Origin: a virus | Lineage: Duplodnaviria; Heunggongvirae; Uroviricota; Caudoviricetes | Length of the DNA stretch: 41,611 nucleotides | Reading direction: 5' to 3' (one strand) | IMG/VR virus record: IMGVR_UViG_2541047801_000004 | Coordinates: 1 to 41,611 of that record | Shown: piece after piece, positions 1 to 38,816 of the stretch | How positions within the stretch are numbered: the first letter of the stretch is position 1 | How the letters are laid out: the number at the start of each line of letters is the position of its first letter | The notes under the pieces: generated by a model | What the model saw: only the letters and a program-made list of their open reading frames with translations | Databases searched by the model: none | What the model was told of the DNA's origin: nothing | Position numbers and translations under genes: made by a program

Positions 1-207
1 TCAGCTATCAATGAGAAAATAAAATATAAATAAATCAATGCATTGAAACAAACCACTTAGCAGATACCACGAAAAATACCATGTCTCAATAATAGAGCTG
101 TCTACAGGCTGTTCAGACGAACAATATGGCCGCTCTACTCCTAATAGAGTCCTTAGCTCGGTCACATCACTAATTTCAACATAGATGTGAACAAAATGAG
201 GCATCAA
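1..207 (-). CDS. hypothetical small protein (68 aa), AT-rich, divergent from the ATPase gene
   Basis: Complete ORF from ATG at 207 to the stop at 1-3; no recognisable motif; may be spurious. Confidence 0.25.
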   Translation of the reverse strand: MMPHFVHIYVEISDVTELRTLLGVERPYCSSEQPVDSSIIETWYFSWYLLSGLFQCIDLFIFYFLIDS

Positions 208-223
208 CGCACCTATTCAGTTA

Positions 224-1738
224 GTGTATTTGATATCGTATGTGGCAACAAAAAATGGAGTTACAATCTTGAAAGTAAGCGAGTTATCTAGCCAAATTGG
301 CCGACTTTACGGCTTAAACAACATCAACATAATTATGGGCCGAAACGGTGCGGGAAAAAGTCGTTTCCTTCGTGATATCGAACAAACAATCAGCCAGAAC
401 AAGCAGCAATTTTATGTCCGGTATGTAAGTCCAGAGCGAGCAGGATCGTTCAAGCGTGATGGCACCGTCCTCACAAATATGAGCGACAACCCCGAATGGC
501 TGAGGCACACTCGGGCAGTTAATCAGGCAAGCAACTTCAAAGCTGCATCGGCTATGCTATTTCGCGAGGCCGAGACGCTTTACTTACGTCGACTTGCCAA
601 TACTCCGGAAATTCGAACTGATCTAACGCGAAACTTTCAGACAGACCGATTAAGTAAAATTAATCAGCTTCTCACTAACATTTCGCTCGAGATGGGTAAT
701 GTCGATTATGAGTTTCGATCACTTGTAGATGGTCAGATTATTGATCCGGCCCAAATCAGTAGCGGTGAATCGGAAGCGGTTGCATTAGCCGCGGAAATCA
801 TCTATTTCTTCGACACAATAGATCCGGAGAAATTCAACGTACTCCTCCTCGATGAGCCTGATGTACATCTGCACCCCGACCTCCAAGCTAGACTGGGCAA
901 GCTGATAATCAGTATGCTCGACGAATTTAGAACACACGCGAACAGTATTGCCATATGCTTATCCACCCATAGTTCCCCGCTCGTCTGTTCTCTTGCCGCC
1001 TCCCCATATGTATCAATCGGCACGAAGAGCTTTGCAGTGAATGAAATCTCATTGATACCGGCCAGCGATGAACTTCGAAAGATTGCACCATTCTTCGGGC
1101 ACCCCCTATCGCTTTCTCTTAGCGAAGACGCTGCATTAATTTTGGAAGGAGAGGACGACGAACGAGTCTGGCAACAAGCGGCCAGAACATCACAGGGTCG
1201 AATAAAAATCTTTCCCGTACTAGCAGGTAGCGTAGATCAACAGAGTCAACTTGAGGATTTTTGCGTAGACCTCCTTAGTACACTCTATGACAATCCAATC
1301 GCCTTTTCCCTTCGTGATGGCGATGGTGTAATCAACGAGTCGCTTGAACATCGCCTACCTCTTAAACGCTATCGCTTACGATGCTACGCTATCGAAAATG
1401 TTCTTTTGACTGATTCATGCCTTGCAGTAATGAATGTTACATGGGTGGAATTTGTAGACGCAGCCAAAAAATGGGTTGAGGATAATCAAACACACTCCGA
1501 CATAGCGTTGATTGCAAAACTAATGGAATCGAACGACCGATTGCGTCACAAGAAGATCAAGAAAATCCGCCAACTCGTCTGTGCTATTGTTGAGTGTAAA
1601 AAACCTTGGGAGGTAGTAGTTGGACAAGCAATCGGGGCATTGACCAGAGAAGACCTTGAAAACTCGAATATGTTGATCGATTTTCTTGGAGGAGAGATGG
1701 TCAGCGACGTCATCTTCAGGGACGCAATAAACCCATGA
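224..1738 (+). CDS. ABC-type ATPase fused to a Toprim/DUF4435-like nuclease domain (OLD-family / PARIS / AbiL-like), candidate anti-phage defence protein
   Basis: Walker A GRNGAGKS, ABC-signature-like SSGESE, Walker B LLLDEPDVHLHP, H-loop STHS; C-terminal acidic motifs ILEGEDDE and LRDGDG resembling the Toprim E and DxD; low GC. Start uncertain: GTG 224, or TTG 269 preceded by GGAG. Confidence 0.6.
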   Translation: MYLISYVATKNGVTILKVSELSSQIGRLYGLNNINIIMGRNGAGKSRFLRDIEQTISQNKQQFYVRYVSPERAGSFKRDGTVLTNMSDNPEWLRHTRAVNQASNFKAASAMLFREAETLYLRRLANTPEIRTDLTRNFQTDRLSKINQLLTNISLEMGNVDYEFRSLVDGQIIDPAQISSGESEAVALAAEIIYFFDTIDPEKFNVLLLDEPDVHLHPDLQARLGKLIISMLDEFRTHANSIAICLSTHSSPLVCSLAASPYVSIGTKSFAVNEISLIPASDELRKIAPFFGHPLSLSLSEDAALILEGEDDERVWQQAARTSQGRIKIFPVLAGSVDQQSQLEDFCVDLLSTLYDNPIAFSLRDGDGVINESLEHRLPLKRYRLRCYAIENVLLTDSCLAVMNVTWVEFVDAAKKWVEDNQTHSDIALIAKLMESNDRLRHKKIKKIRQLVCAIVECKKPWEVVVGQAIGALTREDLENSNMLIDFLGGEMVSDVIFRDAINP

Positions 1739-1753
1739 GAATGACCTGATACT

Positions 1754-2149
1754 ATGACCACGATTGATCCGCCCTCATGGTATCAGTATTTATTTTATAA
1801 CCCGCCTCTCAATACACCAAGAGATTGCGGTAAAGTGGAGCAGCATGATTACCAGCTTTATCTGGCGATAAATGATATTGAGCATACGAAAACGAAAGCA
1901 ATGTCATCTAAGACCAATAGTATCTGCGAGCAGTTCCATAAAACGATACTGAACGAGTTTTATCAGGTGACGTTCCGCAAAAAGTTATATGATGATCTTG
2001 AAGCATTACAATCGGTTCTTGATGAATGGCGGGTTCACTATAATAATGAGCGAACCCATCAGGGAAAAATGTGCAGTGGCCGAACGCCGATGGAAACGTT
2101 ACTTGATGGAAAGCACATCTGGGATGAGAAAAACTTAAGCCAGATGTAA
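1754..2149 (+). pseudogene. IS transposase C-terminal remnant (IS481/IS3-like integrase core tail)
   Basis: Only the C-terminal roughly 110 aa of a DDE transposase is present (CEQFHKTILNEF...YNNERTHQG...GRTPMET); the N-terminal catalytic part is absent. Confidence 0.55.
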
Positions 2150-2236
2150 TCTGACAGATACCTTTATAAATAGCCGGTAATTGTCAGATCAGGTCTGATC
2201 TAATACAACTTAACTGTGTTATGAGCAATACTGAGG

Positions 2237-3013
2237 ATGGATATGGAACCAGAGAAATTTGCTGAAACTGCAATAGGATTTACCAAAAGCCCTCTTGGTA
2301 TCATTGCACTCTTTATTGTTCTCGTTTATGGATTTGCCTCTTTCGTCGTTGGCTTTGGTAATGGCTTATCAGAGCATATAGCTCCCCTTATTTATTTCAT
2401 GGTTTTCTTTCCTGTCATTGTGTTTCTTGGCTTTCTCTGGCTTGTTGCGAAACATCATAATAAGCTTTACGGGCCGTCAGATTTCAAAGATGAAAATAAT
2501 TTTTTAAGAGCGCAAATAGCTACAGCAGCATCATTGACCGCCGCCACAGCAAAACAGCCTGAAAATAGTGCAGGGGTCACTGAAAGCCAACTGCGAAAAA
2601 TCGTCAACGTTGTATCCAATGCAAAACGGCAGAGTAAGCATGAAAAATGGCGAAATCGTATTTTATGGGTGGATGATCGACCAGAAAATAATGTTTACGA
2701 AAGACAGGCATTTGAGGCACAGGGAATAGAGTTCGCTTTAGCTCTTTCAACTGACGAAGCCTTAGAATTGTTAAAAACAAATAAGTTTGCAGCTATTATT
2801 TCGGATATGGATCGCAAAGAAGGGGCGCAAGAAGGTTATGTCTTACTAGAAAGATTACGCGCAATGGGAGACAAAACTCCTTTTATGATCTATGCGTCCT
2901 CAGATCTACCAGAGCACAAGAGAATGGCGAGAGAAAGAGGTGCAATTGGCTCCACTAATCGAGCAGAAGAACTCTTTCAAATTGTCATGGGTGCGATTAC
3001 CAATGGCTCATAA
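2237..3013 (+). CDS. membrane-anchored protein with C-terminal receiver (CheY-like REC) domain
   Basis: Two N-terminal hydrophobic helices; C-terminal domain with REC-like signature positions (WVDDRPENN, IISDMDR, MIYASSD, EHKR); low GC. Confidence 0.55.
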   Translation: MDMEPEKFAETAIGFTKSPLGIIALFIVLVYGFASFVVGFGNGLSEHIAPLIYFMVFFPVIVFLGFLWLVAKHHNKLYGPSDFKDENNFLRAQIATAASLTAATAKQPENSAGVTESQLRKIVNVVSNAKRQSKHEKWRNRILWVDDRPENNVYERQAFEAQGIEFALALSTDEALELLKTNKFAAIISDMDRKEGAQEGYVLLERLRAMGDKTPFMIYASSDLPEHKRMARERGAIGSTNRAEELFQIVMGAITNGS

Positions 3014-8276: not shown

Positions 8277-8293
8277 ATTACCTTTCAGGTGAT
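8277..8293. promoter_or_regulatory. operator-like 17-bp dyad (ATTACC TTTCA GGTGAT)
   Basis: Member of the recurrent ATTACC-N5-GGTAAT family. Confidence 0.45.
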
Positions 8294-8329
8294 TTGCAAA
8301 ACGTGCTGGATAGCAAACAAATTATTTGC

Positions 8330-8349
8330 TACTGTATAAATATACAGTT
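8330..8349. promoter_or_regulatory. LexA (SOS) box TACTGTATAAATATACAGTT
   Basis: CTGT-N8-ACAG with AT-rich centre, near-perfect match to the enterobacterial SOS box; 20 bp upstream of the RBS of the 8369 gene and overlapping a TATAAAT -10-like element. Confidence 0.65.
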
Positions 8350-8368: not shown

Positions 8369-8626
8369 ATGCAGCAGTATCACTATCCACTGGAAGACGG
8401 ATTTACCGAAAGGATTCACACGCCGGGAGGCGTCAGGTCACTGGTGGAGGGATCGCACTTGATGAAATTACTCCGGGATCTCGATAAGGATGGATTTAAT
8501 GTCGATGGCCCACTTGCCGAACTGACTGCACTGATTAACTACGTCACCAGCTCACAGATGTCTATGCGGGATCTGCAAACACATCTCGACTATTGTGCCG
8601 AACAATTACGAAAACAAACCCGGTAA
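8369..8626 (+). CDS. small antirepressor-like protein (paralogue of the Ant C-terminal domain), putatively SOS-inducible
   Basis: 85 aa; GGAG RBS; clear similarity to the C-terminus of the Ant at 9772-10458 (H-P-GV...L-E-S-LM-LL...DG...AELT...RD-QTH); LexA box immediately upstream. Confidence 0.6.
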   Translation: MQQYHYPLEDGFTERIHTPGGVRSLVEGSHLMKLLRDLDKDGFNVDGPLAELTALINYVTSSQMSMRDLQTHLDYCAEQLRKQTR

Positions 8627-9396: not shown

Positions 9397-9413
9397 ATTA
9401 CCTTAAAGGTAAT
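9397..9413. promoter_or_regulatory. operator-like 17-bp dyad (ATTACC TTAAA GGTAAT, perfect half-sites)
   Basis: Best copy of the family; lies between the divergent 9377 gene and the ant leader. Confidence 0.5.
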
Positions 9414-9489: not shown

Positions 9490-9506
9490 ATTACCTTTAC
9501 GGTAAA
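9490..9506. promoter_or_regulatory. operator-like 17-bp dyad (ATTACC TTTAC GGTAAA) in the ant leader
   Basis: Family member about 90 bp downstream of the 9397 site. Confidence 0.4.
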
Positions 9507-9771
9507 TTTACATCGCACTCCTCTTGTGCCATAGTAATCGGGCACTGGCAAAATCCAGTGCCGGGATTGGCGTCCCGGATTACTACAGAGGCACATATGC
9601 CGCATAAGCGGTTTTTTTATGTGTAAAGCGCACCTATTCTATGGTGGGCTGTGTGGGGGCACCGAAAGGTGCGCCGGGTCCTTTGTAGCCGGTTACGCCA
9701 ACCCTGCACAGTTCACCACCAACCGATTGGCGTCGGTAGTGGTGATTAACCTAACTACAAAGGTGATCACT

Positions 9772-10458
9772 ATGACTGCTAACGTAACCCCATCTGTTTT
9801 TCATTTTGAATCAGAAGCAACCATTCGAGCCATTGTTATTGATGGAAATCCTTGGTTTGTTGCCAAAGACGTTATTAAAGCTCTTCAACTGACAAACCCC
9901 ACTATGTCAATAAAATCTCTTGATGATGATGAAAGGGCTAAATTTAACTTAGGCCGTCAAGGCGAAACCAATATTATCAACGAGTCAGGCCTCTACACAC
10001 TGATCCTCCGCTGCCGCGATGCGGTGACACCAGGCACTATCCCATACCGCTTTCGTAAATGGGTTACAGGTGAGGTTCTTCCTCAGATCCGCCGCACCGG
10101 AAGTTACATTAAAAACTCGCTCCCGCAAGAAGAACGCATAAAGATGGTTGCCGACCAGGTAGCCAACGCCACAGCATCAGCAGTGATGCAGGCAATGAAG
10201 ATAGAGAACAAAACCTACAGCGCCCCACTAAAGCCCGGCTACCGCAGTCTGATTCACTCGCCGTCTGGTGTTCTCGGCCTGACGGAGAACTCACTGCTGA
10301 TGAATCTGCTGAACCAGTTACAGGAAGACGGGCACGACGTATCGGGCGCGGCGGCGGAGTTGACCACCATGTTCTGCTACATCGTCGGTGTGAACAAATG
10401 CCTGCGTGATATCCAGACGCACGCGGAGTACATCAACGACAAAGCAGGGTTCTTCTGA
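9772..10458 (+). CDS. ant: antirepressor (Bro-N domain, Ant-like)
   Basis: ATG 9772 with AAAGGTGA RBS; Bro-N-like N-terminal domain (IRAIVIDGNPWFVAKDV...INESGLYTLILRCR...FRKWVTGEVLPQIRRTGSY); long structured 5' leader. Confidence 0.75.
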   Translation: MTANVTPSVFHFESEATIRAIVIDGNPWFVAKDVIKALQLTNPTMSIKSLDDDERAKFNLGRQGETNIINESGLYTLILRCRDAVTPGTIPYRFRKWVTGEVLPQIRRTGSYIKNSLPQEERIKMVADQVANATASAVMQAMKIENKTYSAPLKPGYRSLIHSPSGVLGLTENSLLMNLLNQLQEDGHDVSGAAAELTTMFCYIVGVNKCLRDIQTHAEYINDKAGFF

Positions 10459-27013: not shown

Positions 27014-27030
27014 ATTACCTTTCAGGTAAG
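27014..27030. promoter_or_regulatory. operator-like 17-bp dyad (ATTACC TTTCA GGTAAG) overlapping a TTGACA -35-like element at 26992-26997
   Basis: Family member upstream of the tRNA/moron unit. Confidence 0.4.
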
Positions 27031-27351: not shown

Positions 27352-27428
27352 GTGGCATTAGCTCAGTTGGACAGAGCAACCGCCTTCTAAGCGGTTGGTC
27401 GCAGGTTCGAATCCTGCATGCCACGCCA
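27352..27428 (+). tRNA. tRNA-Arg (anticodon TCT, reads AGA)
   Basis: 77 nt; acceptor stem GTGGCAT/ATGCCAC, D-stem GCTC/GAGC, anticodon stem ACCGC/GCGGT with loop CTTCTAA, T-arm GCAGG-TTCGAAT-CCTGC, discriminator G, encoded CCA. Confidence 0.9.
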
Positions 27429-29612: not shown

Positions 29613-30205
29613 TGATTGCCATCCTGACGTTCTTTGAGTCGCTTCCTGGCTGCTGCTATGCGATCAGCAATTGTCACATTCACATTAACATCCAGGCGTT
29701 CTTTGAATGCGTTGACGTCGACGTGCTTACCAATCAGTTCGAGGTTCTTCACCTTGTCAGGCCATTTAATTTTTTTGAGGATTGTCTCTATCGAATCCTC
29801 GTTCATGTTCATGATGGTCGATGACAGATCAAAGCCACTAAGCGTAGTGCGCCAGATTTTCGGCCACTCGCGGATTGGCTTAAGGCTCCCATCGTCGTTG
29901 AGGATATCGATCACGTCCATCTGGTCGATCTCCACCAGGCGCATGAGAACGTAATCAGCACTGACGCGCATTCGTTTGTTGCGCTCCTCCATCAACTCGG
30001 CAATCCGTTTTTGAATGCGTTCATCGCGCATCATGACACTGGCTTTAACTGCCGCTGTATTTGGGGAGAATCCTGCGTTAATCGCTGCCTGAGTCTGGTT
30101 TTCAGGCGTTTTGATGTATGACTGGCAATAAGCCTCCTGCATTGCGGTTAGTGGCTTAAATTGCGTTGATTTGCGTTTATAGGTTTTAGGTTCAGCAGGC
30201 ATCAT
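29609..30205 (-). CDS. terminase small subunit
   Basis: ATG-ATG at 30205/30202 with GGGTGG RBS; about 198 aa; directly upstream of terL. Confidence 0.65.
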   Translation of the reverse strand: MMPAEPKTYKRKSTQFKPLTAMQEAYCQSYIKTPENQTQAAINAGFSPNTAAVKASVMMRDERIQKRIAELMEERNKRMRVSADYVLMRLVEIDQMDVIDILNDDGSLKPIREWPKIWRTTLSGFDLSSTIMNMNEDSIETILKKIKWPDKVKNLELIGKHVDVNAFKERLDVNVNVTIADRIAAARKRLKERQDGNQ

Positions 30206-30221
30206 AACCACCCTGGTAATT

Positions 30222-30238
30222 GTTACCGTTGTGGTAAT
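30222..30238. promoter_or_regulatory. operator-like 17-bp dyad (GTTACC GTTGT GGTAAT) upstream of terS
   Basis: Family member 17-33 bp upstream of the terS start. Confidence 0.4.
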
Positions 30239-33421: not shown

Positions 33422-33438
33422 TTTACCCATAAGGTAAT
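33422..33438. promoter_or_regulatory. operator-like 17-bp dyad (TTTACC CATAA GGTAAT)
   Basis: Family member between P and the DUF1064-like gene. Confidence 0.4.
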
Positions 33439-33483
33439 TAAAAACCACATAAGACACAAAATCAATAGAGTTAAGAATATTTT

Positions 33484-33500
33484 GTTACCTATAAGGTAAT
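33484..33500. promoter_or_regulatory. operator-like 17-bp dyad (GTTACC TATAA GGTAAT)
   Basis: Family member 45 bp from the previous site. Confidence 0.4.
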
Positions 33501-35332: not shown

Positions 35333-35411
35333 GGTAAGCCCTGTTATTAGTATTGGGATTACGGTTATTTTGTGCTGACACAAAAAAAAGATCAACCAGA
35401 TTTGGTTTTTT

Positions 35412-35428
35412 ATTACCTTTTAGGTGCG
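35412..35428. promoter_or_regulatory. operator-like 17-bp dyad (ATTACC TTTTA GGTGCG), weak right half
   Basis: Family member between the cro-like and zinc-ribbon genes. Confidence 0.3.
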
Positions 35429-35482
35429 AATAGATATGAAAAGACCGCCGGATGGCGGTCTACAGAGGGTTGTGGCTGGATA

Positions 35483-35713
35483 TCATGAGTAGAAGAAGTA
35501 TGCCAGTTCTGCTTTTGAGCGCAGCCATTGTCTTGTTTTACAGGCTTTAAAAAGCCCATTCATCAATACCTTACCTGGCATTTTGCGCTTACCTGTTAAG
35601 TGAGTCTGGATATAGTGACTCGTCGTTCCGGCTTCCTGTGCGAAGGCTTCACGCTCATCCGGAGTAAGTGCAAGCCAGTGCTTTTTGAAATCGAAATGTC
35701 CGTTATCGCTCAT
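35483..35713 (-). CDS. Cro/CII-like HTH regulator
   Basis: 76 aa; HTH-like segment LTPDEREAFAQEAGTTSHYIQTHLTG; divergent from the repressor across the operator cluster. Confidence 0.55.
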   Translation of the reverse strand: MSDNGHFDFKKHWLALTPDEREAFAQEAGTTSHYIQTHLTGKRKMPGKVLMNGLFKACKTRQWLRSKAELAYFFYS

Positions 35714-35748
35714 AGCTATTGCCTGATATTTATTTCAGATAATAAATA

Positions 35749-35765
35749 TTCACCCATAAGGTAAC
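35749..35765. promoter_or_regulatory. operator-like 17-bp dyad (TTCACC CATAA GGTAAC), immunity region site A
   Basis: One of three sites between the divergent cro-like and repressor genes. Confidence 0.45.
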
Positions 35766-35779
35766 AAAAATCAAGGATA

Positions 35780-35796
35780 GTTACCTATGGGGTGCA
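35780..35796. promoter_or_regulatory. operator-like 17-bp dyad (GTTACC TATGG GGTGCA), immunity region site B
   Basis: Directly abuts site C. Confidence 0.4.
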
Positions 35797-35813
35797 TTTA
35801 CCTGTTGGGTAAT
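35797..35813. promoter_or_regulatory. operator-like 17-bp dyad (TTTACC TGTTG GGTAAT), immunity region site C
   Basis: Closest of the three to the repressor start. Confidence 0.45.
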
Positions 35814-35867
35814 ATTGCTTTAAATTGAATCATCTACTGATTCATATATGAGGCGATTTTCCAGAAA

Positions 35868-36452
35868 ATGAAAAGTATCCAGGACGTCCGCAGGCAAAAT
35901 CTCAACGACTTGATCGACCGTGAATTCAATGGTGTTCAGACGCGGATGGCAGAAAAACTTGGAACTCAGGCAAATCTGGTAAACCGCTGGGCTCTTGGCA
36001 AGAAGGTTATCGGCGACCAGGTTGCGCGAAAAATTGAAGCTGCCGCCAATAAACCCCGTAACTGGCTTGATATCGATCGCTCGCTTTCTCAGGAAGGTTT
36101 TCAGCCTGTCGGCCCAAGCGACATTGGTCAGCTGGCAGCTCACAACCTGGAACGCTGGATGAGTGAAAGCCGCGACCTTTCAACTCAGGGAAAACTTCAC
36201 CGCGCATCCGGCGTCGCCCAGGTGACAATAAGCCGCCTGTTAAACAATGAGGTCAGCGTTTCCATTTCCACCCTGGAGAATGTTGCATCTGCATTCGGGC
36301 GTCACGGATATGAACTACTGATTCATCCACATGACCCTGCAACTATCAACTATGACCGCTCGCGCTACGCATTGTTACCTGAAACAGAGAAGGCAAAGAT
36401 CGAAAGTTACATTGAATTTGTCATCAACCAGAACGAAAAAAACAAACAATAA
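35868..36452 (+). CDS. prophage repressor, dual HTH (XRE-like), no peptidase S24 autocleavage domain
   Basis: 194 aa; two HTH-like segments (GVQTRMAEKLGTQANLVNRWALG and ASGVAQVTISRLLNNEVSVSISTL); divergent from cro-like gene; weak RBS; no Ala-Gly/Ser-Lys LexA-like cleavage module. Confidence 0.6.
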   Translation: MKSIQDVRRQNLNDLIDREFNGVQTRMAEKLGTQANLVNRWALGKKVIGDQVARKIEAAANKPRNWLDIDRSLSQEGFQPVGPSDIGQLAAHNLERWMSESRDLSTQGKLHRASGVAQVTISRLLNNEVSVSISTLENVASAFGRHGYELLIHPHDPATINYDRSRYALLPETEKAKIESYIEFVINQNEKNKQ

Positions 36453-36474
36453 AATCATATTTTTCAGTAAGTAA

Positions 36475-36496
36475 GCCGCCTTATGGCGGCTTTTTT
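36475..36496 (+). terminator. rho-independent terminator of the repressor gene
   Basis: Stem GCCGCC/GGCGGC with loop TTAT, followed by TTTTTT. Confidence 0.6.
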
Positions 36497-36508
36497 ATTG
36501 CCTGTTCG

Positions 36509-36525
36509 ATTACCTAACGGGTAAT
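36509..36525. promoter_or_regulatory. operator-like 17-bp dyad (ATTACC TAACG GGTAAT)
   Basis: Upstream flank of the PL-like promoter. Confidence 0.45.
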
Positions 36526-36543
36526 TTTTTTAACTCATATCTA

Positions 36544-36570
36544 TTGACATCAAACCAGATACGCATAATT
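36544..36570 (+). promoter_or_regulatory. PL-like early-left promoter (-35 TTGACA, -10 ATAATT) bracketed by operator dyads
   Basis: TTGACA at 36544-36549 and ATAATT at 36565-36570 (15-bp spacer, suboptimal); operator sites at 36509 and 36571. Confidence 0.4.
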
Positions 36571-36587
36571 ATTACCTCAACGGTAAC
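36571..36587. promoter_or_regulatory. operator-like 17-bp dyad (ATTACC TCAAC GGTAAC)
   Basis: Overlaps the predicted transcription start of the PL-like promoter. Confidence 0.45.
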
Positions 36588-36605
36588 AGACCGAGGTAAC
36601 AAGTT

Positions 36606-36761
36606 ATGCAGTGGAAAATCATCAACGGTTGGTACTGCGTTACTGCATGCGGATTCATGAGCTGGAAGTTCCGCACCTTACAGGAAGGCATTAAGTGGGC
36701 TTTCGTCAGCAAAGAAGCTCTCGATGTAGCCAACGATAACGAGATATGGGAGGGCTGATAA
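36606..36761 (+). CDS. small ORF (51 aa), first gene of the early-left operon
   Basis: GAGGT RBS; stop overlaps the next start; below the ORF-track size cutoff. Confidence 0.3.
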
Positions 36762-37060
36762 TGAACGTTAATCAGCAGAAAAATCTTCAAAAAATCATGC
36801 TGGCATTCGACAAGGACTACCGCCTGTCAGAACAGCTATATGACCGACAAGTTGAACTGATTGAGAGCATCCGACTTCATCAACTGTCCTCAACTTTCGA
36901 CGTTGTAACAGGCAAAGGCGTTCGTCAAGAAGTACTGGAGGCTGCTAAAGACAGCCCTGAGTTCGAAGAACTGATGGATGCCTATCGGCGAGAGGCAATG
37001 GCAATTATCGCCCGCTGGGATCTGGCGGATCAGCTTGATGGACAGAGGGACGCGGCATGA
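36761..37060 (+). CDS. hypothetical protein
   Basis: ATG 36761 (MNVNQQKN...); 99 aa; upstream of the exonuclease with ATGA overlap. Confidence 0.45.
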   Translation: MNVNQQKNLQKIMLAFDKDYRLSEQLYDRQVELIESIRLHQLSSTFDVVTGKGVRQEVLEAAKDSPEFEELMDAYRREAMAIIARWDLADQLDGQRDAA

Positions 37061-37878
37061 AACCGGGAATTTATTTCGACATCAGCAACGAAGACTACCA
37101 CGCCGGTGACGGCGTGAGTAAGTCGCAACTGGACATGGTTGCCAAGAATCCGGCGCTTCTTAAATGGGTTCAGGCAGCACCAGAAGACGAAGAGAAAAAG
37201 TCTGCACTGGATATGGGAACCGCATTGCACTGTCTGCTTCTGGAGCCTGGAGAGTTCGACAAACGCTTCATTGTTTCACCGAAATTCGATCGTCGGACGA
37301 AACAAGGTAAAGCTGACGAAGAGGCATTTCTTCGTGATGTGGCGGATATGGTGATTACGGTACTTGATGCCGAGCAGTGGCGGAAACTGGAGCTGATGCG
37401 TGATAGCGCAATGGCTCATCCGGCGGCACGCTGGATGTTGGAAGCACCTGGTTACTGCGAAGCATCAATGTACTGGAACGATGAAGAGACGGGTGAGTTG
37501 TGCCGAATTCGTCCAGACAAATGGCTGAACGAGCACAACGTGATCGTCGACGTGAAAAAGGTTGCAGATATGGACCGTTTTGCACGCCACATCGAGGAAT
37601 TCCGCTACCACGTGCAGGACGCAATGTACCGCGAAGGCGCAATGAGGGTTACTGGTCAGCCGCATGGTTTTTTCTTTCTTGCCGTGAGCGAAAGCATTGA
37701 TTGTGGTCGGTATCCGGTACGCGTGTTCGAGCTGGATGCGCAGGATGTCGATGCCGGGCGCGCTCTGTTCCGCCGGGATCTGAATACCTATCACGAATGC
37801 CGCATCAATGATGAATGGGGCGGTGTGGAAATCATTAAACGCCCTGAGTGGGCACGCAAACAGGATATGTACATATGA
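37057..37878 (+). CDS. PD-(D/E)xK recombination exonuclease (RecE/YqaJ-like)
   Basis: IVDVKK (D-x-K) and YHVQDAMY (QxxxY) motifs; immediately upstream of RecT with overlapping stop/start. Confidence 0.65.
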   Translation: MKPGIYFDISNEDYHAGDGVSKSQLDMVAKNPALLKWVQAAPEDEEKKSALDMGTALHCLLLEPGEFDKRFIVSPKFDRRTKQGKADEEAFLRDVADMVITVLDAEQWRKLELMRDSAMAHPAARWMLEAPGYCEASMYWNDEETGELCRIRPDKWLNEHNVIVDVKKVADMDRFARHIEEFRYHVQDAMYREGAMRVTGQPHGFFFLAVSESIDCGRYPVRVFELDAQDVDAGRALFRRDLNTYHECRINDEWGGVEIIKRPEWARKQDMYI

Positions 37879-38816
37879 GCAACGACATCGCAAACATCAA
37901 CACACCAGTAGACACAGCAATCGCTGGAACTGCTGCAACTATTTTCAGCCCAGACGGCTTGAACCAACTGATGAAATTCGCCGAGGTAATGGCGCAAAGC
38001 CGCGTAACGGTACCGGCGCACCTCGCCGGGAAACCAGCTGATTGCATGGCCGTGGCAATGCAGGCTGCGCAGTGGGGAATGAACCCGTTTGCCGTGGCTC
38101 AGAAAACCCATGTTGTGAACGGCACGCTAGGTTATGAAGCCCAATTAGTAAACGCAGTTATCTCAACAATGTCGCCAACAAAAGATCGCATCAACTACGA
38201 GTGGTTCGGGCCGTGGGAACGCGTGATCGGTAAGTTTGTTGAGAAAACATCCAAAAACGGCAATCCGTATATCGCACCAGGCTGGACTCTAAAAGACGAA
38301 GAAGGTTGCGGTGTTCGCGTATGGGCAACCATGAAGGGCGAGGATCAACCTCGAGTGCTTGAGTTAATGCTGTCTCAAGCACAGGTAAGAAACTCCACAC
38401 TTTGGGCCAGTGATCCGAAACAACAACTCGCATACCTTGCAACAAAACGCTGGTCTCGCTTGCACTGTCCTGACGTAATCATGGGCGTCTACACACCAGA
38501 CGAATTACAGGAAACGGCACCGCGCGTTGAGCGAGACATTACTCCGCAAACGACCACTGCTGCGGGAATGAACAGTCTGATCAACGCTAAACAAGTGAAA
38601 AAGCCTGATGAGCAAACGCGTAAAGCGGATAGCCGTGATCCAGAAGAAATGCTAATGGCCTTTACCAGCGCAGCGATGAATTACAGCACTGTCTCCGAAC
38701 TGGATAAAGCTTACAAATACATTGCACAAAAACTTTCAGATGATGACGAACTGCTGGCAAAAGCCACCGACGTTTACAGCGTTCGTCGGGAAGAATTAAA
38801 CGAAACATCTATGTAA
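37875..38816 (+). CDS. recT: RecT-family single-strand annealing recombinase
   Basis: ATG 37875 (MSNDIANINTP...); RecT-like core as recalled; paired with the exonuclease. Confidence 0.7.
   Translation: MSNDIANINTPVDTAIAGTAATIFSPDGLNQLMKFAEVMAQSRVTVPAHLAGKPADCMAVAMQAAQWGMNPFAVAQKTHVVNGTLGYEAQLVNAVISTMSPTKDRINYEWFGPWERVIGKFVEKTSKNGNPYIAPGWTLKDEEGCGVRVWATMKGEDQPRVLELMLSQAQVRNSTLWASDPKQQLAYLATKRWSRLHCPDVIMGVYTPDELQETAPRVERDITPQTTTAAGMNSLINAKQVKKPDEQTRKADSRDPEEMLMAFTSAAMNYSTVSELDKAYKYIAQKLSDDDELLAKATDVYSVRREELNETSM

Follow-up and report, generated by a model that had tools for sequence, protein, structure and literature searches.

The closest described relative of the locus studied here is the Rep/Ant immunity system of Salmonella phage SPC32H, reportedly characterized by Kim and Ryu (2013, J Virol) and by Kim et al. 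(2016, PNAS); the abstract of the former is said to state that Rep stays uncleaved when the SOS response is on and that the sister phage SPC32N became constitutively lytic through a single point mutation in its LexA box. PMC9986798 divides SPC32H Rep, in this order, into a DNA-binding domain (DBD), a dimerization domain (MDD) and a domain that both tetramerizes and binds Ant (CAD), the last of these resembling the p53 tetramerization fold. As described in PMC9638917, this repressor binds DNA as a tetramer and weakly as a dimer, and an Ant tetramer splits it into two dimers. It has also been proposed that the pair of N-terminal domains found on one palindrome comes from different dimers. Ant, according to PMC7380047, is under the control of LexA, is produced after LexA self-cleavage and inactivates the repressor by protein-protein contact.

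Two other systems are comparable. The repressors of the Gifsy prophages and the CI/Tum pair of phage 186 follow the same logic, a noncleavable repressor inactivated by a LexA-repressed antirepressor (PMC7380047), but in the literature they differ in oligomeric state and in the fold of the antirepressor. A structural relationship links SPC32H Rep to Rco of the Bacillus plasmid pLS20, since both combine an N-terminal HTH with a C-terminal tetramer domain, and the fold of the latter, a beta-strand plus a helix (the p53-like TetDloop), is common to the two proteins according to PMC9986798; sequence searches with Rep did not detect this relationship. The additional HTH-like dimerization domain between the termini belongs to Rep and distinguishes it from Rco.

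The window, by which we mean the whole stretch of 41,611 nucleotides that was analyzed (IMG/VR record IMGVR_UViG_2541047801_000004), comes from a phiV10/epsilon15-like podophage of the genus Uetakevirus. Positions 35400 to 36700 are 98.6% identical to phiV10 and 97 to 98% identical to a dozen further E. coli Uetakeviruses; for the DNA of the switch, identity to phiV10 and vB_EcoP_ZX5 is 97.5 to 98.6%. The gene rep, whose start codon is the first ATG past an in-frame stop in the ORF list, codes for a protein 100% identical to p40 of phiV10, ORF21 of vB_EcoP_ZX5, the repressor of phiv142-3, and others, leaving no difference at all at the protein level from p40 or ORF21. The phiV10 GenBank record lists p40 as a putative repressor of transcription and mentions its "two helix-turn-helix motifs," and overexpression of ORF21 in vB_EcoP_ZX5 abolished free phage and lowered the lysin and holin transcripts by more than 99.9% (PMC9782041). 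A phmmer search of the PDB found homology to SPC32H Rep over the full length (5D50_A, residues 1 to 190 against 2 to 197, E = 4e-42) and a second alignment to 5D4Z covering residues 89 to 190, and tblastn against SPC32H Rep gave 41.8% identity at 98% coverage. The same two structures, 5D50 and 5D4Z, headed the Foldseek results obtained with the model of Rep, followed by the XRE regulators SinR, DdrO, ClgR, and HigA. A database search retrieved 86 clusters of homologs of about 194 aa, and those with a named source were all from Enterobacterales. The repressor, its annotation, the structures of its family and the antirepressor mechanism are therefore already known, and the ORF very probably encodes the Rep-type lysogeny repressor of the Uetakevirus podophages (epsilon15, phiV10, and SPC32H-like), controlled by an antirepressor and devoid of self-cleavage. 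The features discussed below are collected in Table 1.

Table 1. Features of the lysogeny switch, the antirepressor genes and the dispersed Rep-type dyads, in window coordinates unless residues are given
Feature	Position	Strand	Remarks
Rep-type dyad, 1 mismatch	8278..8292		Where ant and the tailspike gene diverge, some 40 bp upstream of the LexA box; conserved in SPC32H
LexA (SOS) box TACTGTATAAATATACAGTT	8330..8349		20 nt upstream of the ant ATG; near-perfect; position conserved in SPC32H
ant, small antirepressor, 85 aa	8369..8626	+	5D50_E (SPC32H Ant), E = 1.4e-46; PHROG 450
Two perfect Rep dyads 93 bp apart	9398-9412, 9491-9505		Upstream of the second antirepressor module
isrK-like RNA	9542-9618	+	Rfam gathering match, 76.8 bits
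Bro-N antirepressor with Ant-like C-terminal domain	9619..10458	+	Pfam Bro-N, E = 7.9e-20; PHROG 130 "anti-repressor Ant"
C4 antisense-like RNA	9637-9723	+	Rfam gathering match, 79.5 bits
Perfect Rep dyad	27015..27029		Just 3' of a TTGACA hexamer, upstream of tRNA-Arg (27352-27428)
Two adjacent Rep-type dyads (30205, 30223), one perfect	30205..30237		At the 5' end of the listed small-terminase ORF
Pair of perfect Rep dyads (33423, 33485) at a distance of 62 bp	33423..33499		After replication gene P and before the DUF1064 gene that follows it
Cro-like divergent regulator, 76 aa	35483..35713	-	Equivalent of phiV10 p41; PHROG 35 "transcriptional repressor," E = 4.9e-12
PR-like promoter TTGTTA-17-TATTAT, for cro and replication genes	35739..35767	-	Prediction only
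Operator dyad O1 TCACCCATAAGGTAA	35750..35764		1 mismatch; within the spacer of the leftward PR-like promoter
Operator dyad O2 TTACCTATGGGGTGC	35781..35795		2 mismatches; center 31 bp from O1
Operator dyad O3 TTACCTGTTGGGTAA	35798..35812		Perfect; center 17 bp from O2; overlaps the -35 of the candidate rep promoter
PRM-like candidate promoter of rep, TTTACC-18-TAAATT	35797..35826	+	Prediction only
rep, lysogeny repressor, 194 aa	35868..36452	+	100% identical to phiV10 p40
Rep N-terminal HTH DNA-binding domain	Residues 1-73		Role by homology
Rep HTH-like middle dimerization domain	Residues ~85-151		Role by homology
Rep C-terminal tetramerization and Ant-binding domain	Residues ~148-190		Role by homology
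Intrinsic terminator 3' of rep	36473..36492	+	Sequence scan; also annotated in phiV10
OL/PL: perfect dyads 36510-36524 and 36572-36586, 62 bp apart	36510..36586	+	
Promoter-like TTGACA-17-AATTAT between the OL dyads	36544-36572	+	Would drive the early recombination genes

Between rep and the cro-like gene, whose 76-aa product matched no Pfam family, there is an intergenic region of 154 bp with three dyads of the form TTACC-N5-GGTAA. The positions of O1 to O3 are kept in all five Uetakeviruses that were aligned (the window phage, Enterobacter phages Tyrion and BUCT554, Klebsiella phage BUCT711, and Salmonella phage SPC32H), and the window has nine copies of the perfect version of the dyad where 0.02 would be expected, a count that none of 100 shuffled sequences reached. 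A divergent repressor/cro arrangement with three operator dyads, as an earlier note on this DNA had described it, is thus borne out by the ORFs, the dyad scan and the positional conservation among the five phages; the switch is real and lies far beyond chance. Matches to the LexA box near rep and cro were limited to two with one mismatch each, at 35528 and 36372; direct control of rep or cro by LexA can be rejected because both matches are inside coding sequence and not near a promoter.

The layout is similar to that of lambda in several respects: a repressor divergent from cro, three operators, one of them over the repressor promoter, and a second set at the leftward promoter. In contrast to lambda, however, Rep of the window has no S24 domain, each dyad spans 15 bp and the centers are 31 and 17 bp apart, the repressor would be tetrameric and bind according to a "trans" model (by analogy with its homolog), and no predicted promoter fits a leaderless transcript.

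The predicted PR-like promoter obtained a PWM score of 12.0, above the 99th percentile of the background, and was found by the consensus scan too. The candidate rep promoter scored 10.2, between the 90th and the 99th percentile. This candidate, in the form TTTACC-N17/18-T(A/T)AAT(T), is the best rightward candidate in all five phages, at a single position of the alignment, and is the only conserved rightward promoter-like element. Its -35 sits in the left half of O3, an overlap that would give autoregulation if this is, as seems likely, the promoter from which rep is transcribed. The consensus predicts a transcription start near 35833 and hence a leader of about 35 nt.

The distant GAGG reported earlier is indeed present (35850-35853), 14 nt before the ATG, and is the sole SD-like element; the Shine-Dalgarno sequence of rep is weak or absent, and the best duplex with the anti-SD upstream of the gene (-5.6 kcal) is badly placed. 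Relatives of rep do not have a usable SD either (-2.1 to -3.3 kcal in three of four), and the GAGG is missing in Tyrion, BUCT711, and SPC32H; therefore, the lack of an SD is a conserved property of this gene. These features are what one would expect if, as had been suggested, the rep mRNA were leaderless like that of lambda cI from PRM, starting within one or two bases of the ATG at 35868 and initiating on 70S ribosomes without an SD, and in SPC32H a TACAAT ends 5 nt before the rep ATG. In the window, however, the sequence from -13 to -7 is GATTTTC, unusable as a -10, and the matching -35 is missing. Of the candidates from the PWM scan, none in the window starts at the ATG and no such candidate is shared by the five phages, whereas the conserved rightward element places the predicted start near 35833 in every one of them. 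A weak SD is also not diagnostic in this phage because the cro-like gene has no good SD itself (-2.5 kcal), yet its leader is predicted at about 19 nt. A leaderless rep transcript thus appears unlikely: the best rightward promoter candidate predicts a leader, and no -10 in the window is correctly spaced from the ATG. Such a transcript would bear on expression alone and is compatible with the Rep/Ant mechanism. The consensus scan, together with the PWM scan of the five orthologous intergenic regions, found no conserved promoter ending at the ATG.

At the sequence level, the two XRE-like HTH segments that had been noticed in the 194-aa protein are both recovered by Pfam. HTH_3 (PF01381) matched two stretches (E = 1.2e-9, 38.5 bits against a gathering cutoff of 23), the best of them at residues 106 to 147, where a LacI-type HTH was matched too, and residues 21 to 61 also match the Cro-like YdaS family. 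The second segment, going by the solved homolog, corresponds to the dimerization domain and not to a second DNA reader, and the earlier description did not include the third, C-terminal module, which in the homolog is the Ant-binding target of induction. The AlphaFold2 model of Rep (29 homologs as input, mean pLDDT of 78.5, pTM of 0.41) is all-helical, with bundles at 4 to 59 and 85 to 151 and a long C-terminal helix at 172 to 193; the short beta-strands of the tetramerization domain are absent from this monomer model. The C-terminal part aligns with the solved helical domain 5D4Z. No alignment between the N-terminal and C-terminal parts of Rep was obtained with BLASTP; a recent duplication is therefore not the source of the two HTH-like segments.

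It is very improbable that both HTH-like segments touch DNA, be it as a pseudo-dimer on the two half-sites or with the second segment reading some other sequence. The DNA-binding family HTH_3 is matched more strongly by the second segment than by the first, and the half-sites of the dyad are one helical turn apart, but the two segments have no detectable similarity to each other, whereas the half-sites are symmetric and identical, a pattern consistent with one domain acting in two copies. In the solved homolog, the N-terminal domains read DNA and the middle domain dimerizes (PMC9986798, PMC9638917). Conservation argues in the same direction: the half-sites are alike in the window phage and SPC32H, and the N-terminal HTH is better conserved between their repressors (53% identity) than the middle domain (32%), with 49% for CAD.

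The absence of an autocleavage module, also claimed before, held up. The domain search and structure prediction directed at a cryptic S24-like domain, which would have a beta-rich fold and a Ser/Lys dyad, found nothing in Rep: Pfam gave no match to Peptidase_S24 up to E = 1, the model is helical throughout, and the 194 residues contain neither an Ala-Gly nor a Cys-Gly dipeptide, nor indeed any cysteine. A cryptic S24 domain is rejected on these three results. The last alternative, that the protein is some other XRE-family regulator, such as an antitoxin or a moron regulator, and not the immunity repressor, is effectively refuted, since the name "plasmid maintenance system antidote protein VapI" that the identical gene bears in the record of phage BP9 and the weak resemblance of the N-terminal part to YdaS in Pfam stand against the block of the lytic cycle by overexpression of the identical ORF21 of vB_EcoP_ZX5, the homology along the whole length to the characterized repressor SPC32H Rep, and the canonical immunity position of the gene, divergent from cro, upstream of the replication genes and with its own dyads alongside.

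The suggestion that induction depends on antirepressors is supported, by homology to a characterized family for which this dependence had been established before, because the window contains a small ant gene behind a LexA box. The product is identical to SPC32H Ant (5D50_E) at 74 of 85 residues (87%), and Rep is far less conserved than Ant between the two phages. A GGAG precedes the ant start, and the core of the LexA box, CTGTATAAATATACAG at 8332-8347, is a perfect CTGT-N8-ACAG. Upstream of ant, the DNA runs collinear with the corresponding part of SPC32H, including both the LexA box and the Rep-type dyad. The presence of this dyad (8278-8292) counts against the mechanism, as ant would have to be expressed while Rep is still bound. 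Taken feature by feature, the systems of the window phage and SPC32H are alike in the three-module Rep, the position of the gene, the layout of three dyads, the half-sites, and an Ant of 85 or 86 aa behind a conserved LexA box. They differ in the central 5 bp of the dyad, A/T-rich in SPC32H and mixed in the window. The window phage also has isrK/C4 RNA elements and a Bro-N antirepressor whose tail resembles Ant.

These elements, of which the homology, the domain content, the dyads, the LexA box, and the ant gene are present in the window itself, would work together as follows. The N-terminal XRE-type HTH of Rep would read the TTACC-N5-GGTAA dyads. In the prophage, Rep tetramers would sit on the three dyads between rep and cro, keeping lytic transcription off, and they may also occupy the dyad pairs at the promoter of the leftward operon and at several further promoters; which of the dyads are bound jointly, like the position of the rep promoter, is our inference. 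Lacking a LexA-like protease domain, Rep would remain uncleaved. After DNA damage, the host LexA would leave the SOS box before ant and Ant would be made, dock on the C-terminal domains of Rep and break the tetramer up into dimers with poor affinity for DNA, derepressing the lytic genes. What is said here of noncleavage, of tetramers and of how Ant acts comes from work on homologs (Rep identity of 42%). The practical value of the comparison is the correct annotation of such prophages, in which induction should run from SOS through LexA to Ant and not through cleavage of the repressor, and this bears on predicting the response of the phiV10-like prophages carried by pathogenic E. coli to antibiotics that damage DNA.

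Downstream of ant, the window carries a second antirepressor of the Bro-N type, whose residues 198 to 274 match 5D50_E (E = 1.4e-13). Its true start is likely M52 at 9772, the part upstream corresponding to the orf45-like leader ORF. By analogy with the isrK-orf45-anrP arrangement of Gifsy-1 (PMC4825925), the isrK-like and C4-like RNAs would be control elements of this antirepressor, and a terminator-like hairpin is found at 9599-9612. The antirepressor module is closest to that of phage TL-2011b, not to phiV10 or ZX5, and no counterpart of the Bro-N and isrK/C4 module is annotated at that position in the SPC32H record. Overexpression of the Bro-N antirepressor of vB_EcoP_ZX5 lowered lysogeny (PMC9782041). 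In the window phage, the second antirepressor probably reinforces or diversifies the switch, a role that we infer.

The dyads are not restricted to the switch. Thirteen Rep-type dyads, with at most one or two mismatches, were found at seven loci of the window, and SPC32H has 10 perfect dyads, its half-sites at the equivalent places being the same. The spacing of 62 bp between paired dyads, both at OL and after the replication genes, is common to the window phage and SPC32H, and these pairs suggest that one tetramer may bridge two dyads by means of a small DNA loop. Dyads also adjoin the promoters of both antirepressors; hence, Rep would hold down its own inactivators. It is possible, and we put it forward tentatively, that the Rep regulon is, throughout the genus, larger and more wired than described so far and that the switch is self-reinforcing, and also, as a separate matter, that rep is translated without an SD or a leader. 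If this were true, a first burst of Ant released by LexA would unlock the RNA-gated, Ant-like Bro-N antirepressor, giving a self-reinforcing commitment switch. The many conserved dyads, with pairing at 62 bp, and the RNA-gated second antirepressor flanked by dyads are testable extensions of the known system. Finally, the cargo genes at the left end of the window showed generic ATPase similarities only in a PADLOC search.

The dyad TTACC-N5-GGTAA, the predicted operator of the lysogeny repressor Rep, has nine perfect copies in the window, against 0.02 expected, and the dyads are distributed across seven loci. Two pairs, 33423/33485 and 36510/36572, are spaced by exactly 62 bp, and the related Salmonella phage SPC32H has the same dyad sites and the same 62-bp pairs. 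This spread, together with the regularly spaced pairs, suggests DNA looping by a tetrameric repressor and a Rep regulon that extends beyond the immunity region. The divergent intergenic region between the tailspike gene and ant, which codes for the small antirepressor, houses both a LexA box and a Rep-type dyad with one mismatch, the latter also kept upstream of the ant LexA box in SPC32H. This dyad may serve either of the two genes, or both. Upstream of a tRNA-Arg gene, found at the equivalent position in SPC32H, there are a TTGACA hexamer and a perfect dyad (27015).

Positions of the features discussed (nt of the window)
Feature	Position	Remark
OLD/ABC-type ATPase, 504 aa	within 224-3013	first gene of the window
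131-aa ORF, then 258-aa ORF	within 224-3013	follow the ATPase; receiver-like domain in the 258-aa ORF
Rep-type dyad, 1 mismatch	within 8278-8349	ca. 40 bp upstream of the ant LexA box
Match to isrK Hfq-binding RNA	9542-9618	Rfam, gathering level
Match to C4 antisense RNA	9637-9723	Rfam, gathering level
Bro-N ORF	9619-10458	Ant-like C-terminal end
tRNA-Arg	27352-27428	anticodon TCT
9-bp block AAAAATCAA	35766-35774	O1-O2 interval
Exonuclease gene	37057..37878	
RecT-like gene	37848..38816	GTG start
15-bp dyads (starts)	8278, 9398, 9491, 27015, 30205, 30223, 33423, 33485, 36510, 36572	

Between O1 and O2, two of the three operator dyads separating rep from the cro-like gene, the block AAAAATCAA is identical in all five phages compared, while the DNA flanking it is divergent. 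Read from the minus strand, it gives TTGATT, which could serve the predicted leftward promoter as an alternative -35 element.

We found that Ant (8369-8626) shares 87% identity with its SPC32H counterpart, but Rep (35868-36452) only 42%, rising to 49% in the CAD, its putative C-terminal tetramerization and Ant-binding domain. The operator half-sites of the two phages are equal. Taken together, these comparisons make antirepressor cross-talk between Uetakeviruses of E. coli and Salmonella possible, and perhaps even cross-immunity.

In a second antirepressor module, matches to isrK and C4 are located ahead of a Bro-N ORF and within its 5' part. This ORF ends in 80 aa with similarity to the small Ant (E 1.4e-13 against 5D50_E). 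The layout is similar to those of isrK-orf45-anrP in Gifsy-1 and the P1 immI antirepressor module; the nearest DNA match is in phage TL-2011b, and many Stx phages carry parts of the module.

At the left end, where phiV10 and SPC32H code for O-antigen modification, the window has genes that may be defence cargo. The ATPase gave only generic PADLOC matches (AriA, PtuA, and GajA-like; the best was PDC-M01A, 1.1e-17), and no defined defence system was recognized by this tool in the region. As for recombination, the exonuclease and RecT-like genes are two distinct, overlapping ORFs, also distinct in SPC32H and BUCT554, whereas a single RecET fusion is annotated in the phiV10 record.
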